DNA of 64,000 nt, taken from Octopus sinensis. Taxonomy: Eukaryota. Shown piece by piece: positions 8,992 to 61,324 of the stretch. The DNA is taken from NCBI RefSeq assembly GCF_006345805.1, contig NC_043000.1:117118001-117182000 (forward strand). The letters are read 5' to 3'. Under the pieces are notes generated by a model. That model was not told the DNA's origin. It was given only the letters and a program-made list of their open reading frames with translations, and made no database searches. Position numbers and translations under genes: made by a program. How positions within the stretch are numbered: position 1 is the stretch's first letter; every line of letters begins with the position of its first letter.

Positions 8992-9628
8992 GTATGTGGT
9001 AAGGCAATTCGTTGCTAAACCCTTTATTGCTTAGTATTAGTTAAATTTTCCTCGAATGAGGCTTTTACATGCCGAAGACTACTGGTGTAATTGATAATTA
9101 TTCCAAATTAATTAATTTCACCCTTCATTATTACGGATAACCATATTTTATCTCAGTAGATGACCACAGCATCTTGTTTTGGCTACACGCGGGTGGGAAG
9201 GGGCTGGTGACACAATCTTTCCATTCACACATTGAATTGGTGATACTAGTTGCGGATTCTAGCTCGCTCTGATACTGAGTTGAGTTGGTGCCTTCTAGTA
9301 TCTCAAAATTCAATATTAATCATTTATGATTATAGTATTCTACGCTGAAGAGAAAAGAAGTTTTTGGTAAGATAGAATTATTTAATATTTAATTCTTATG
9401 CTTTCCTAAAAACTTGATTTCGAAACGTACGTCCGTAGATAACTTAAAATTGTATGATAGATTGCCGTCAATTCATTCTCTCTTACCTGTTTGTGTCTGC
9501 CTTCCAATTGCTGTTTTTACTGAGATCTCCCTTTTTAGTAGAAGAAATAGCTATAACTCTTTGACTGATATTTCTAAATTCGGTATGTGGTAAGGCAATT
9601 CGTTGCTAAACCCTTTATTGCTTAGTAT
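8992..9628 (+). mobile_element. Retrozyme/pLTR-like unit: 591-nt period, 46-nt terminal direct repeat, central hammerhead
   Basis: Identical 46-mer at 8992-9037 and 9583-9628; (TA)n on both sides; hammerhead at 9339-9439. Confidence 0.7.
9339..9439 (+). ncRNA. Type I hammerhead ribozyme with long helix II
   Basis: tctacg-CTGAAGA-[gaaa..aagtttttgg..agaatta/taattct..ctaaaaactt..tttc]-GAAAC-gtac-GTC-cgtaga. Confidence 0.85.
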
Positions 9629-9759
9629 ATATATATATATATATATATATTATATATATATATATTATATATATATATATATTATATATATATATATTTA
9701 TTTATATATATATATTTATTTATATACTTTATTATAAAGCTGCAAAGACATCACAAAAC

Positions 9760-9797
9760 CTGTTACTCAGAGTTTCTCGTTCCCGTTCGTCGGACAG
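9760..9797 (-). ncRNA. Hammerhead-like motif, U4C variant (left arm of hairpin 9728-9877)
   Basis: ctgt-CCGACGA-acgggaacga-GAAAC-tctga-GTA-acag. Confidence 0.55.
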
Positions 9798-9806
9798 TTT
9801 TGGTTT

Positions 9807-9844
9807 CTGTCCGACGAACAATAACGTGAAGCTCTGAGTAACAG
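9807..9844 (+). ncRNA. Degenerate hammerhead-like motif (right arm of hairpin 9728-9877)
   Basis: ctgt-CCGACGA-acaataacgt-GAAGC-tctga-GTA-acag. Confidence 0.4.
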
Positions 9845-10164
9845 TTTTTGTGATGCCTTTCCTGCTTTATTAATAAAGCATATTTCTCCACCTACTGTAT
9901 TCGAGTACTATTTTTTCACCTTGTTTCGCATTTCTACTTTGGTATACGGACACAAACAAAATCCTGAAGTAAATCCAGCAGCATACACCTCCAAACTTCT
10001 GTTGAAATCAGGTGCCTAAATATGTGAATGAGCTTCAAACAGCATACTGCAAAGTGTATACCTGAATATAAAATTATTACCTATATATATATATATATAT
10101 ATATATATATATATAATATATATATATATATTATATATATATATATAATATATATATACACACA

Positions 10165-10895
10165 TATATATACTTAAGTCAAACCATATAGAAAAAAATT
10201 AAAGATACGATAAAACATTTACCTAGAACTAAATAAAGTACGAAATGATAATTATATAGTATATAATTAGTAGGGATTTATTTATTATTATTTCGTAGTT
10301 TATTTATTTCTCGGTAAATGTTTTATCGTATTTTTAATTTTTTTTTTATATATATAGTACGATTTAAATATATCATTGTTGAATTGCTACATGGTGGTTT
10401 CTTCTCTAATTTATAAACATGTATTATATAATGTGAAATTTGATTTAGTATTTCTAAATTGAATTTTTCCCTGTAAGTTTGGAATCATATTCCCTAATAT
10501 ATATATATAATATATATATATATAGATATATATATATATATATATATATATATACACACATATATATACTTAAGTCAAACCATATAGAAAAAAATTAAAG
10601 ATACGATAAAACATTTACCTAGAACTAAATAAAGTACGAAATGATAATTATATAGTATATAATTAGTAGGGATTTATTTATTATTATTTCGTAGTTTATT
10701 TATTTCTCGGTAAATGTTTTATCGTATTTTTAATTTTTTTTTTATATATATAGTACGATTTAAATATATCATTGTTGAATTGCTACATGGTGGTTTCTTC
10801 TCTAATTTATAAACATGTATTATATAATGTGAAATTTGATTTAGTATTTCTAAATTGAATTTTTCCCTGTAAGTTTGGAATCATATTCCCTAATA
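10165..10895. repeat. Tandem duplication (396-nt period) of an AT-rich hairpin unit with a PLE-like terminus
   Basis: CTTAAGTCAAACC at 10173 and 10569; internal ~60-bp inverted arms; terminus TTTTCCCTGTAAGTTTGGA..TATTCCCTAATAT shared with 46655-46688 and (reverse) 29215-29255. Confidence 0.85.
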
Positions 10896-58713: not shown

Positions 58714-58749
58714 CTTTCTGTAGAAGAGCGTAGGCTCGAAACGTAAAAG
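58714..58749 (+). ncRNA. Variant hammerhead-like motif (CUGUAGAA core)
   Basis: cttt-CTGTAGAA-GAGC-gtag-GCTC-GAAAC-GTA-aaag. Confidence 0.55.
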
Positions 58750-58845
58750 ACTTTTTCTATTCCTCAGCGTTATACTAATACATCTGTTTGTTTTGTACAC
58801 CACCTGTCTTCGTCTTTTGTTTTTTTCGTAAACTCTCCCTATATA

Positions 58846-60468
58846 CTGTTGCGGTCAAAGTGTTCAGAACGGCATTGTTTTCGTCAGAAAAGTAGATATA
58901 AGTTTTTATCAAAGTTGTTTTATATTCTATAATTTTCGCAGACAATAAATACAATATTATTTGTTATTGTCTGAGATTTTGGTGTAATTTGAGAGGATAA
59001 TACAAAAGTTATGGATGATTTAGTGATTTACTGCAAAACCCATGGCGGCCAAAATGATCAGAACGGTTGCTTTTACACTCGTGTGTTTAGTATATTTAAC
59101 CGGCGAACTCTAATGTTTTGAATTTGTTTACGTGACGGTTCGTTTACTAAACATTAGTAAGAATATTTGCAGTGTACGTTGTTAATATAATGCCACTTAC
59201 TCCGTTCCCAATTCGTCAGCAGATTATTAAGCTTCGAAGGAAGGATAATTTAAGTATTGGATCTATTGCAAAGATTTTTTAACAAGTCAAAAAGTGTTGT
59301 ACACGATATTCTTAAGGTCTACGATGATTGTGGTTCGTGTGAAGCAAGAAAGTTTACAGGTAGGCCAAGAAAAACGACCAAGAGTGAAGATCGTGCTATG
59401 GTAAAGTTGGTTAAAAGGACAGATTTAAAACTGCTGCTGCTGTTTCTCAGAAAATGAGCATTGTATTGAAGAAAACTTTATCTTGAAAAACTGTGTCTCC
59501 GTCATTAGTTTGAACATGACCTACAAGCAAGAGCACCTGCAGTGAAGCCACTGATCAGCTCCAAGAATAAAAAGTGTCGTCTTACTTTTGCAATCGCAAT
59601 GTGTTGTTGGTCTCAAGAAAAATGGCAAACGGTGTATTCAGTGATGAATCTAAGTTTATGCTATTTGGCTCAGATGGGAAAAGGTACGTTTGTACAAAAG
59701 TATGTGAAAAATTGTTGCCTAAATGCCTTAAGATTAGTGTTAAATTCGGTGGAGGAAGTGTCATGTTTGGGGAATGATATCTGGAGATGGTGTGGGTCCT
59801 TTGGCGCGAATTACATGGAATTAAATGCAGGAGTTTGTATAACAACTTGTAAAAGATCATGTCTTGCTTGTGCTGAGAATTCAACTAAGTGACCACCCAT
59901 ATTCATGCAGGACAATGCCCCATGTCACAAGGCTAAGGTGGTCATGAACTTCCTCGAGCTGAAAGGTTATTGTTATGGATTGGCCAGCTCAACGCCCAGA
60001 TTTCAATCCTACTGAAAATGTGTGGAATATTCTAGGAGAACGTTCGAAAGCCAGAAATCCTAAACAGCTGAGCATATGGAATGCCCTCAGGAAGAATGGA
60101 ATAAGATCACCCAGCAAGAAATTGAAAATTTAATTTCCTCATGCAGTCGAAGATGTCAGAGTGTGATTGAAGCTAAAGGGCTTCACACTAAATATTAAAT
60201 AATTCCAGTATTCTCTGTCATTTTTGATTATTTTGTTATTTTTTCAACCGTTCTGATCATTTTGGCCGCCATGGGTTTTGCAGTAAATCACTAAATCATC
60301 CATAACTTTTGTATTATCCCCTCAAATTACACCAGAATCTCAGACAATAACAATTAATATTGTATTTATTGTCTGTGAAAATTATAGAATATAAAACAAC
60401 TTTGATAAAAACTTATATCTACTTTTCTGACGAAAACAATGCCGTTCTGAACACTTTGGCCGCAACTG
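58846..60468 (+). mobile_element. Tc1 (DD34E) transposon with ~224-bp IR/DR terminal inverted repeats
   Basis: TIRs 58846-59069 / 60245-60468, TA flanks; outer and inner repeats CGGYCAAARTGWTCAGAACGG. Confidence 0.95.
59190..60198 (+). pseudogene. Tc1 transposase, frameshifted
   Basis: GRPRKTT, VFSDESKF, VKFGGGSVM, FMQDNAPCH, WPAQRPDFNPTENVW, GLHTKY*. Confidence 0.92.
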
Positions 60469-60544
60469 TATATATAATCAAGGTTACAAAATAGTTCCGG
60501 CATTTCTAGAAACCAAAGTCAAAAGCGACTCAGCCACAAAAATC

Positions 60545-61187
60545 CATTAACTTCATAAGTTGACGAAAGAGAAGAAGCGACCAAAAATCCGTACCATAGT
60601 GAGACAAGCTCTCAAGTGAGGTGGCAGATATACACATCCCACGTGATTTCGAACTCTGATGAACTGCACCTGAGTTCTCGTCAATGGATCTTACTTAGCC
60701 TAGGGTTAAGCATAACTCGTCTCGTCAACCCATCAGAAAAACCGTTGAAAGCGTACGCTATTTCCAAACTGTAGAAGTGTATACTATAAATAATGTCGTG
60801 GCCTATTGAATCGTTTTTTGACTTCTGTTTCTAGCAGCGCTGGCCCGTTAGCAATTCAAACCTAAAGGGTATATAAACAAGGGTATAAAATAATACCAGC
60901 ATTGCTAGAAACAACAGTCAAAAGGATTCAATGACCCACCTACATCATTTATAGTATACACTTTTACCGTTTTGAAATAGCGTAAGCTTTCAACGGTTTA
61001 TCATATGAGTTGACGAGGCGAGTGATGCTTAACCCTAGGGAAAGTAAGATGCATTGACGAGAAATGAGATGCAATTTATCAGAGATCTAAATCACGTGGG
61101 ACGGGTATATCTACCACCTCACTTGGGAGTTGTCTCACTGCAGTACGGAGCTTCTCGCTTCCTCTCTTTCGTCAACTTAAGTTAGTG
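60545..61187. repeat. Old foldback element with ~300-bp diverged inverted arms
   Basis: Arms 60545-60844 / 60896-61187, e.g. CCTAGGGTTAAGCAT / ATGCTTAACCCTAGG and TCCCACGTGATTT / AAATCACGTGGGA. Confidence 0.85.
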
Positions 61188-61221
61188 CTTTATATATATA
61201 TATATTATTCTTGTTTATTTT

Positions 61222-61324
61222 TAACCTGATGAGTGGCTATATTTATATCGAAGTGATTTTACTACTACTATTAATTTTTTACTATAATCATTTCTTAAAT
61301 ATAGACACGAAACACGTGTCGTTA
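61222..61324 (+). ncRNA. Type I hammerhead ribozyme with long helix II
   Basis: taac-CTGATGA-[gtg.ctatattta..gaagtgatt../..aatcatttc.taaatatag.cac]-GAAAC-acgt-GTC-gtta. Confidence 0.85.

Follow-up and report, generated by a model that had tools for sequence, protein, structure and literature searches.

Why would a hammerhead ribozyme carry a helix II several times longer than it needs? The question is raised by four hammerhead patterns in a 64,000-nt window of the Octopus sinensis genome (contig NC_043000.1, positions 117,118,001 to 117,182,000), whose helix II is approximately 3-4 times the usual length, with 54-76 nt and 19-24 predicted pairs. We favor, with a probability of about 0.55, the reading that these are Penelope-derived, dimer-cutting type I hammerhead patterns in which the long helix II is a tolerated, self-folding outgrowth and not a dedicated module.

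Four hammerhead patterns and their long helix II

All four motifs were found where a sequence-only reading had placed them (9339, 12128, 56421 and 61222), and in their CUGANGA and GAAA cores, NUH cleavage triplet and palindromic stub all four fit minimal type I hammerheads at the level of sequence. The first, m1 (9339..9439, forward strand), has a helix I of 6 bp (9339-9344 with 9434-9439), the core CTGAAGA (9345-9351), a helix II of 70 nt and 24 predicted pairs (9352-9421) followed by GAAA, the palindromic stub CGTACG (9426-9431) and the triplet GUC, with the cut predicted after 9433. The second, m2 (12127..12211, forward), has a 6-bp helix I that includes a G-U pair, a core at 12133-12139, a helix II of 54 nt and 19 predicted pairs (12140-12193), the stub CATATG (12198-12203) and the triplet GUC, with the cut predicted after 12205. 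On the reverse strand, m3 (56420..56515) has its core at 56511-56505, a helix II of 69 nt and 24 predicted pairs with U-U at its base (56504-56436), the stub CACGTG (56431-56426) and the triplet GUA. Finally, m4 (61222..61324, forward) has a 4-bp helix I, a core at 61226-61232, a helix II of 76 nt and 21 predicted pairs with a 27-nt unpaired apical loop (61233-61308), the stub CACGTG (61313-61318) and the triplet GUC; its cut is predicted after 61320, and (TA)n lies 22 nt upstream and 163 nt downstream. The description of these motifs as intact holds for the cores and self-complementary stubs of all four, but not for helix I of m3, which is broken or bulged with just 1 contiguous pair; m3 is likely a decayed copy. 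In context, helix I is predicted to form in m1 and m2 only, and the core and helix I of m4 are predicted to be trapped in an alternative pairing (helix I probability 0.0).

In every motif the long helix II is predicted to be well paired. Against dinucleotide shuffles its stability has z scores of -3.97, -4.08, -2.68 and -4.22 in m1 to m4, and 0, 0, 4 and 0 of 500 shuffles, respectively, were equally stable. With a strict long-helix descriptor the window yields 3 matches and 150 block-shuffled windows yield 0, and a pure pattern whose length range leaves out m4 has 3 matches (m1-m3) against a chance mean of 0.01. The motifs are, as had been claimed, mutually unrelated, in that their inserts cannot be aligned with one another (best local scores 9-19). 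The C(UUCG)G cap ascribed to m2 is there as letters (12167-12172), but the predicted fold is a UUC triloop (P 0.98), with the tetraloop register at P 0.0 and 6.3 kcal/mol worse. Internal duplication was considered as a source of the inserts and rejected, the longest direct repeats being merely 5-8 nt. A splice-donor-like GTAAG lies within helix II of m1 and m3; among the joints listed, none skips it.

A palindromic stub and function as dimers have been described for Penelope-like hammerheads. Here the stub is palindromic in each of the four long-helix motifs, and helix III is predicted to be too weak in the monomer, its pair probability not exceeding 0.04 in any of the six motifs folded. The stub octamers self-pair at -6.4 to -10.3 kcal/mol, and a crude sum for the dimer-ready fold is favorable for m1 (-7.4) and m2 (-2.0) and unfavorable for m4 (+5.4).

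Such motifs are easily overlooked. Rfam covariance models gave no match at gathering score in the window, and the 146 matches up to E 10 include no hammerhead family, and the four motifs with a short helix II were missed too; the window contains no tRNA gene. The earlier expectation that length-limited descriptors would pass over the long motifs is borne out, since 54-76 nt exceeds a published upper bound of ~24 nt: the descriptor of Cervera 2014 (PMC4209133) has a stem II of 3-7 bp and a loop of 3-10 nt, and the core search of Craig 2021 (PMC8557442) a spacer of 7-17 nt. Among 18 anchors in the window made up of GAAA, a palindrome and UH, 8 have an upstream core, 4 with a long and 4 with a short helix II; thus half of the eight exact-core patterns escape published descriptors through the length of helix II. 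Since helix II length hides motifs, ribozyme counts in such genomes may be too low, and the verdict that an element 'lacks a hammerhead' may be mistaken for the same reason. Long stem II variants may already stand in Lunse 2017 or Arkhipova 2017. A metagenome search gave at least 119 long-helix matches; of the 119 listed, 40 are palindromic and 2 have a helix I of at least 4 bp, which we attribute to chance, and we see no convincing long-helix hammerhead among those listed.

Element context and the 591-nt unit

The surroundings of the motifs point to Penelope-like elements. Each of the eight predicted cut sites is followed by a (TA)5+ run 54-241 nt downstream, and a run of this kind is found within 300 nt of 21.5% of random positions; both (TA)n targets and truncated copies in inverted orientation have been described for Penelope-like elements. 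The 3' end of the m2 element (12204-12262) recurs in truncated form and inverted orientation (97%) at 11994..12052 on the reverse strand, this copy starting 2 nt before the predicted cut. The 3' arm of the m3 element (56210..56423, reverse strand) runs up to its (TA)n and carries a terminal motif common to the short-helix family. The short-helix motifs of the window are a head-to-head pair of hammerhead patterns with a 17-nt helix II (29388..29542; cores at 29427, reverse, and 29503, forward) and two more in 341-nt inverted repeats (45113..46617), where each repeat has a hammerhead pattern with a 16-nt helix II (cores at 45254, reverse, and 46477, forward). Judged by sequence comparison, the m3 element appears to be distantly related to the 45113..46617 inverted-repeat family: its score against the family with a 16-17-nt helix II is 80, compared with 56.5 +/- 6.7 for shuffles, of which 1 in 300 did as well. 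Inverted repeats are common in the window. A hammerhead near the 3' end, (TA)n, the m2 inverted copy and a terminal redundancy in m1 together make the four motifs likely 3' tail ends of Penelope-like elements. No Pfam match to a Penelope reverse transcriptase (RT) or GIY-YIG domain was found among the 150 ORFs scanned of 228 filtered in the window, and the Penelope link therefore rests on context; copies lacking ORFs are expected if the elements are truncated or non-autonomous.

The m1 motif sits in a 591-nt non-coding repeat unit (9038..9628, forward strand) of a high-copy family. The 46 nt in front of the unit (8992..9037) repeat its 3' terminus (9583-9628) exactly, and (TA)n flanks the whole on either side. 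This is a short non-coding unit joined head to tail, and in these respects it is one resembling a retrozyme. The contigs covering position 9040, 3 nt beyond the junction, number 103, 50 and 53, and their ends lie up to 29-37 letters away; in the window the unit has one hammerhead, and among the contigs listed none spans the stretch. The unit is predicted to be highly structured (z -5.2 against shuffles; in a strand comparison, -6.9 on the hammerhead strand and -2.9 on the other) and 9030-9630 contains no perfect inverted repeat of at least 14 nt. Two of eight control stretches fold even better, both with long inverted repeats, and the m2, m3 and m4 elements, each taken whole, are no more stably folded than shuffled sequence (z -0.16, 0.97 and -1.15).

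Copy data, from thousands of contigs, cover the m1 family only. Variants in the unit break a predicted pair in 7 of 38 cases against 14.0 +/- 2.4 expected (P 0.004), the bulk of this signal coming from one divergent contig (3 of 19 against 7.3; P 0.015); among the 19 variants common in large runs the count is 4 against 6.6 expected, which is not significant (P 0.11). No variant of the core or triplet is listed among these contigs, and the sole one in the stub, A9429G (at 41% in run X1), would yield U-G pairs in the dimer. At 9365 the majority allele C (71-83% in three large runs) breaks a helix II pair of the window copy, at a cost of 2.7 kcal/mol. The copies are too similar for covariation, and no compensatory substitution in helix II is among the variants listed. 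Loose ends, on different contigs, suggest a subfamily in which the U/A tract of helix II is shortened on both strands.

What the long arm might be

Our preferred account would run as follows. The four motifs have a core, stub, NUH triplet and foldable long helix II, with helix I in three, and would lie in the 3' terminal repeats of truncated or non-autonomous Penelope-derived elements that, judging from context and the literature, probably spread by reverse transcription into (TA)n. The 8-nt palindromes would pair two copies to form a dimer helix III, and cutting is predicted only when the copies are paired. Because these ribozymes would need just the first 3-4 pairs of helix II, its tip could grow; growth that pairs with itself would spare the core, and unpaired growth would not, such that selection may keep the outgrowth, free in sequence, folded back on itself. 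The stem of m1 may be just one arm among others in a 591-nt RNA that, like retrozymes, is structured as a whole. What mere tolerance leaves unexplained is that four unrelated families reached 19-24 pairs.

That same uniformity, in 4 of 4 motifs with unrelated sequence, is one point in favor of the earlier proposal that the arm is an RT-binding or tertiary-contact module. The alternative we take most seriously, though we consider it unlikely, is a selected handle of about two turns, gripped by the RT-endonuclease that the element encodes or by a dsRNA-binding protein of the host, either to chaperone a protein-assisted hammerhead or to mark the RNA for reverse transcription. By analogy with PAc (Poseidon from Anolis carolinensis), the single Penelope element reconstituted in vitro, it could have a precedent: the PAc hammerhead cleaves only with protein, stem II marks the beginning of the ORF and with it of the protein-needed region, and the ORF's first 172 nt cannot be dispensed with (Frangieh 2024, PMC11167929). 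In PAc, however, reverse transcription begins in an AC-rich stem-loop of its own, 111-118 nt inside the ORF, and a 5' truncation to +20 still inserts (PMC11167929). Further, there are four examples only, the extensions have no sequence or bulge pattern in common, and the relative of m3 makes do with a helix II of 16-17 nt, all of which argue against a module as first proposed. A more ambitious version would have a large, uncounted Penelope-associated class with a selected protein-grip arm of ~20 bp, and m1 as a structured 591-nt retrozyme that is transcribed, A-to-I edited in its arm and cut in vivo, with truncations clustering at the cut; this we regard as improbable.

Doubtful to a greater degree is the idea that helix II opens 3-4 pairs from the core into a first internal loop, which takes the place of loop 2 and docks on helix I as in canonical type I hammerheads, with the distal stem merely closing the loop. 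The first stem is indeed 4, 3 and 3 bp in m1, m2 and m4, and the spacing in m1 and m2 is the canonical 6/4, with helix I 6 bp long and the internal loop closed by a stem of 3 bp. But m3 has 12 unbroken pairs, and the unpaired U1.7 and loop adenine of the known loop-loop Hoogsteen contact are present in m1 only (the A at 9417, on the 3' side of the loop), position 1.7 being A, C and A in m2, m4 and m3, which also weakens the tertiary-contact proposal. Docking would account for the loop and not for 20 further pairs, and extension of stem II with more internal loops can reportedly inhibit trans-acting hammerheads.

We give little credence to the motifs being dead relics, their hairpins the result of fold-back insertions during reverse transcription, kept at the DNA level and devoid of RNA function. 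The broken helix I of m3, the predicted misfolding of m4, the frequency of inverted repeats, the insertion in vitro of PAc hammerhead mutants (Frangieh 2024, PMC11167929) and the fact that m1 and m2 fold equally well or better on the reverse strand would all suit such an origin. Against it, CUGANGA is exact in all four cores and invariant among the m1-family contigs listed, the hammerhead strand is the better-folding one in m3 and m4, and the stems have bulges and G-U pairs, with no long perfect inverted repeat around m1. Lastly, that these are the 'half cores' of Naiad elements that Craig et al. could not fold is scarcely credible and was rejected: Naiad elements share (TA)n targets and have core halves 35-50 nt apart in eight families, including one from Octopus vulgaris, but the Craig consensus files contain none of four 11-12-mers taken from around the stubs in the window (line breaks could mask a match), and two octopus Naiad consensi lack a palindromic stub and have the exact GAAA half ahead of the CUGAUGA half.

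What purpose Penelope hammerheads serve has yet to be settled (Craig 2021, PMC8557442; Frangieh 2024, PMC11167929). Related elements with helix II of 16 nt and of 69 nt, together with the compact 591-nt unit, offer natural constructs on the role of the arm, for which folding, dimer cleavage and protein binding are candidates. If the arm is merely tolerated, the value of these motifs lies in correcting search methods.

Comparison with known systems

The motifs share with metazoan Penelope-like minimal hammerheads (PMC4209133; PMC8557442) the type I topology, CUGANGA and GAAA cores, a palindromic helix III, a helix I of 4-6 bp, G10.1-C11.1 (3 of 4) or U..U at the base of helix II, and dispersed single or head-to-head copies with (TA)n flanks; elements of the Hydra clade often have U..U there, like m3 (Craig 2021, PMC8557442). 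They differ in a helix II of 54-76 nt and 19-24 predicted pairs, where 7-8 bp has been called 'larger than usual', in a 6-nt palindrome and in that no ORF is seen in the window. Like animal non-LTR retrozymes (PMC7229834; 10.64898/2026.07.22.740005), the m1 unit is non-coding and AT-rich, has a type I hammerhead, a head-to-tail junction and a predicted structured RNA, and its 591 nt falls in the reported 51-972 bp. The window, in contrast, holds a monomer plus 46 nt, with one hammerhead and a long helix II; monomer copies of retrozymes have been described, and retrozymes have been proposed to be non-autonomous Penelope derivatives (PMC7229834; 10.64898/2026.07.22.740005). Octopus is not mentioned in the main text of Cervera and De la Pena 2020 or of Li, Clavereau and Pollet 2026. 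PAc (Frangieh 2024, PMC11167929) likewise has a pLTR hammerhead and AT-rich targets, and we count as a further likeness that its reverse transcription starts internally, downstream of the ribozyme; PAc differs in being autonomous, with an ORF from stem II and a cut 26 nt after the start codon, hence a short helix II. A long helix II is not wholly new: PLE-X1_sMoe from Selaginella, also a Penelope-like hammerhead, is tabulated with 54 nt between its cores (1+9+35+9; Craig 2021 File S2) and is marked as deviating from the canonical structure (PMC8557442). That case, however, is a single plant element without endonuclease that inserts in 28S rDNA and is drawn with 9 bp and a long loop, whereas here four animal families have extended predicted pairing.

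Hammerhead motifs in the window

We find four hammerhead motifs with a long helix II, and these are real patterns in an AT-rich window (GC 0.27-0.40 per 2 kb) that holds many (TA)n and dispersed repeats. A descriptor scan places m1 at 9339-9439 (core 9345, helix II region 70 nt), m2 at 12127-12211 (core 12133, 54 nt) and m4 at 61222-61324 (core 61226, 76 nt) on the plus strand; m3 lies on the minus strand at 56420-56515 (core 56511, 69 nt) and has one contiguous helix I pair. CUGANGA stands upstream of 8 of the 18 GAAA-palindrome-UH anchors in the window, namely those of m1-m4 and of four motifs with a 16-17 nt helix II. 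A strict descriptor gave 3 matches in the window versus 0 in 150 shuffled windows, and a pure pattern search gave 3 versus 0.01 by chance. The fold energies of helix II in m1, m2, m3 and m4 are -16.7, -15.5, -23.0 and -14.5 kcal/mol, and dinucleotide shuffles were as stable in 0/500, 0/500, 4/500 and 0/500 cases, respectively.

The sequence-only reading had described four mutually unrelated motifs with an intact core. The inserts in helix II are indeed unrelated in sequence, and the CUGANGA cores, stubs and foldable long helix II hold up, but helix I of m3 is broken or bulged and m4, although its core and helix II are present, has a core predicted to be trapped in other pairing (helix I probability 0.0). 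The C(UUCG)G cap ascribed to one motif is not supported: in the predicted fold of m2, CUUCGG encloses a loop of three bases, with probability 0.0 for the tetraloop register. That length-limited descriptors would miss such motifs is borne out: both the Cervera descriptor (stem II 3-7 bp, loop 3-10 nt; PMC4209133) and the Craig core search (spacer 7-17 nt; PMC8557442) fail on them. A metagenome scan for long-helix motifs returned chance-like matches only, among the matches listed.

Copies of m1 and its 591-nt unit

The stretch 9038-9600 is present in at least 20 sequencing runs from 10 studies under five organism labels. Because contigs matching 8990-9630 in four runs (5444, 1536, 1436 and 38) give depth in 30/30 bins, the long helix II of m1 is a family trait and no private insertion. 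No variant of the m1 core or cleavage triplet occurs among the variant rows listed for four runs, which cover all but 3 substitution rows and 1 indel row; the stub variant A9429G (41% in run X1, 4% in X2, 0 in X12) would still give U-G pairs in the predicted m1 dimer. Helix II carries at least five variants: A9356G, a one-base loss at 9361 (19-29%), U9365C, A9408U (14-25%) and loss of 9408 (3-8%), with no two-sided substitution among these five. C at 9365 is the majority allele (71-83% in three large runs) and is predicted to take the window's helix II from -16.7 to -14.0 kcal/mol with the remaining stem kept. Loose contig ends, taken from different contigs and runs, suggest a subfamily whose U/A tract is shorter on both strands and still able to pair. 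We note G at position 9356, in the first internal loop of helix II, in the main contig of X13, which by conjecture is an RNA run; X12 has this G in one contig, X1 and X2 in none. Stem editing (possibly A-to-I) and a single genomic variant are both possible.

The m1 unit spans 9038-9628 (591 nt), and its final 46 nt are repeated ahead of it. Its end-to-start junction is read through at position 9040 by 103, 50 and 53 contigs, and since so many contigs cross it this appears to be a self-contained, non-coding unit. The z-score of its fold is -5.2 (0/100 shuffles); by strand, z is -6.9 for the hammerhead strand versus -2.9 for the opposite one, and 86 pairs bridge across the ribozyme. Only 7 of 38 listed substitutions, excluding 2 rows outside the unit, break a predicted pair, versus 14.0 +/- 2.4 at random (P 0.004); the 19 common in large runs give P 0.11, and the other 19, mostly from one divergent contig, P 0.015. 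Two of eight control stretches, both holding long inverted repeats, fold better than the unit, and the fold comparison shows no whole-element structure for the m2, m3 and m4 elements.

Possible roles of the long helix II

We favor, with a probability of roughly 0.55, the reading that the long helix II is tolerated self-folding growth that selection keeps from interfering with the core. That it is instead a grip for a protein seems unlikely to us. The numbers of predicted pairs are alike in m1-m4 (24, 19, 24 and 21), and by analogy the hammerhead of PAc, a Penelope-like element of Anolis carolinensis, which requires protein and whose needed RNA begins at stem II, would suit such a grip or module; yet PAc with ribozyme mutations still inserts (PMC11167929). 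A dedicated module is further opposed by the absence of a common sequence among the four extensions and by a fourfold variation in helix II length between m3 and its relatives in the 16-nt family. This relationship follows from the alignment of the m3 downstream region with that family (score 80 versus 56.5 +/- 6.7, 1/300 base shuffles) and from a terminal motif that both have in common, found at 5 places. More doubtful still is a tertiary contact made by the first internal loop of helix II, for although helix II begins with a stem of 3-4 bp in three of the four motifs, m1 alone has an unpaired U1.7 and a loop adenine. Least probable of these is that the motifs are dead relics. The crude dimer balance is favorable for m1 (-7.4) and m2 (-2.0), unfavorable for m4 (+5.4), and +3.4 and -0.8 for the short-helix motifs, modeled values which suggest that a long stem alone does not secure the active fold.

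Probable Penelope-like context and known hammerheads

A (TA)5+ run lies 54-241 nt downstream of all eight predicted cut sites; 21.5% of random window positions have one within 300 nt. An inverted 59-nt copy of m2's own 3' end precedes m2, and the short-helix motifs are arranged as inverted pairs (29388-29542, 17-nt helix II; 45113-46617, 16 nt). A scan of 150 of the 228 filtered ORFs of the window turned up no Penelope ORF, and the Penelope assignment of m1-m4 therefore rests on context. Two inversion breakpoints lie just ahead of predicted cuts: the start of the inverted copy at m2 (12204, 2 nt ahead) and, in one X1 contig, an opposite-strand joint at 9431 (3 nt ahead of the m1 cut). The two inverted pairs of short-helix motifs show no truncation at the predicted cut.

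Other elements lie nearby. Both arms of a palindrome at 9722-9883 (9793-9764 on the minus strand and from 9813 on the plus strand) contain a hammerhead-like pattern with core CCGACGA, C replacing U4 in each, and a 10-nt helix II, the plus arm having GAAG instead of GAAA; its stub, CTC-T-GAG, is odd-centered, as in Hydra-clade elements. A 636-nt self-inverted element (80%) at 60556-61179 contains decayed hammerhead-like halves near 60690-60630 (minus strand; TTGACGA, 6-bp stem, GAAA, CACGTG). Short element ends without a hammerhead occur in tandem at 10364-10551 and 10760-10948, with the terminal motif common to m3 and the short-helix family, and at 28997-29075, related to the 3' end of m1. At 56022-56072, 51 nt derived from the 3' arm of the short-helix family adjoin a frameshifted LINE-type element (53294-56064, minus strand), which is not Penelope-like and has a decayed RT (PF00078, RVT_1; 53651-54685, E 1e-31). 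There are also decayed Tc1/mariner-type transposons at 58840-60474 (230-nt inverted repeats, 97%; weak HTH_Tnp_Tc3_2 and DDE_3 matches) and 14284-15391 (weak Mos1 HTH match), and, at 15262-15503 and 21392-21990, long hairpins made by inverted repeats of 84-92 nt that match almost perfectly.

Our literature search found no paper on animal long-helix Penelope hammerheads among the papers listed, and earlier surveys or Repbase may contain such variants; Craig File S2 already includes one element with 54 nt between cores (PMC8557442). The Naiad "half cores" show a different arrangement from m1-m4 in two octopus consensi of that paper. Inspected by eye, Naiad_Obim and Naiad_Ovul (3' ends, File S5) seem to have, ahead of the CUGAUGA half, a strand complementary to a stretch in the hairpin preceding the GAAA half; a hammerhead in permuted or pseudoknotted form is one possible reading.

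The long-helix-II hammerheads extend a known, probably Penelope-type design, with any working role of the extension putative. The m1 unit resembles a non-LTR retrozyme in being a short, apparently non-coding hammerhead unit with predicted structure, and is known here from a monomer with one ribozyme. The U..U at the base of helix II in m3 is usual in Hydra-clade hammerheads (PMC8557442), and inverted copies like those at m2 and in the short-helix pairs are described for Penelope-like elements too. Each of m1-m4 has a self-complementary stub, with helix III predicted at probability <=0.04 in the monomer and the stub octamers predicted to self-pair at -7.0 to -10.3 kcal/mol; as modeled, stubs that are weak alone and self-pairing in pairs would match the dimer-dependent design known from Cervera 2014 (PMC4209133) in Penelope-like elements.
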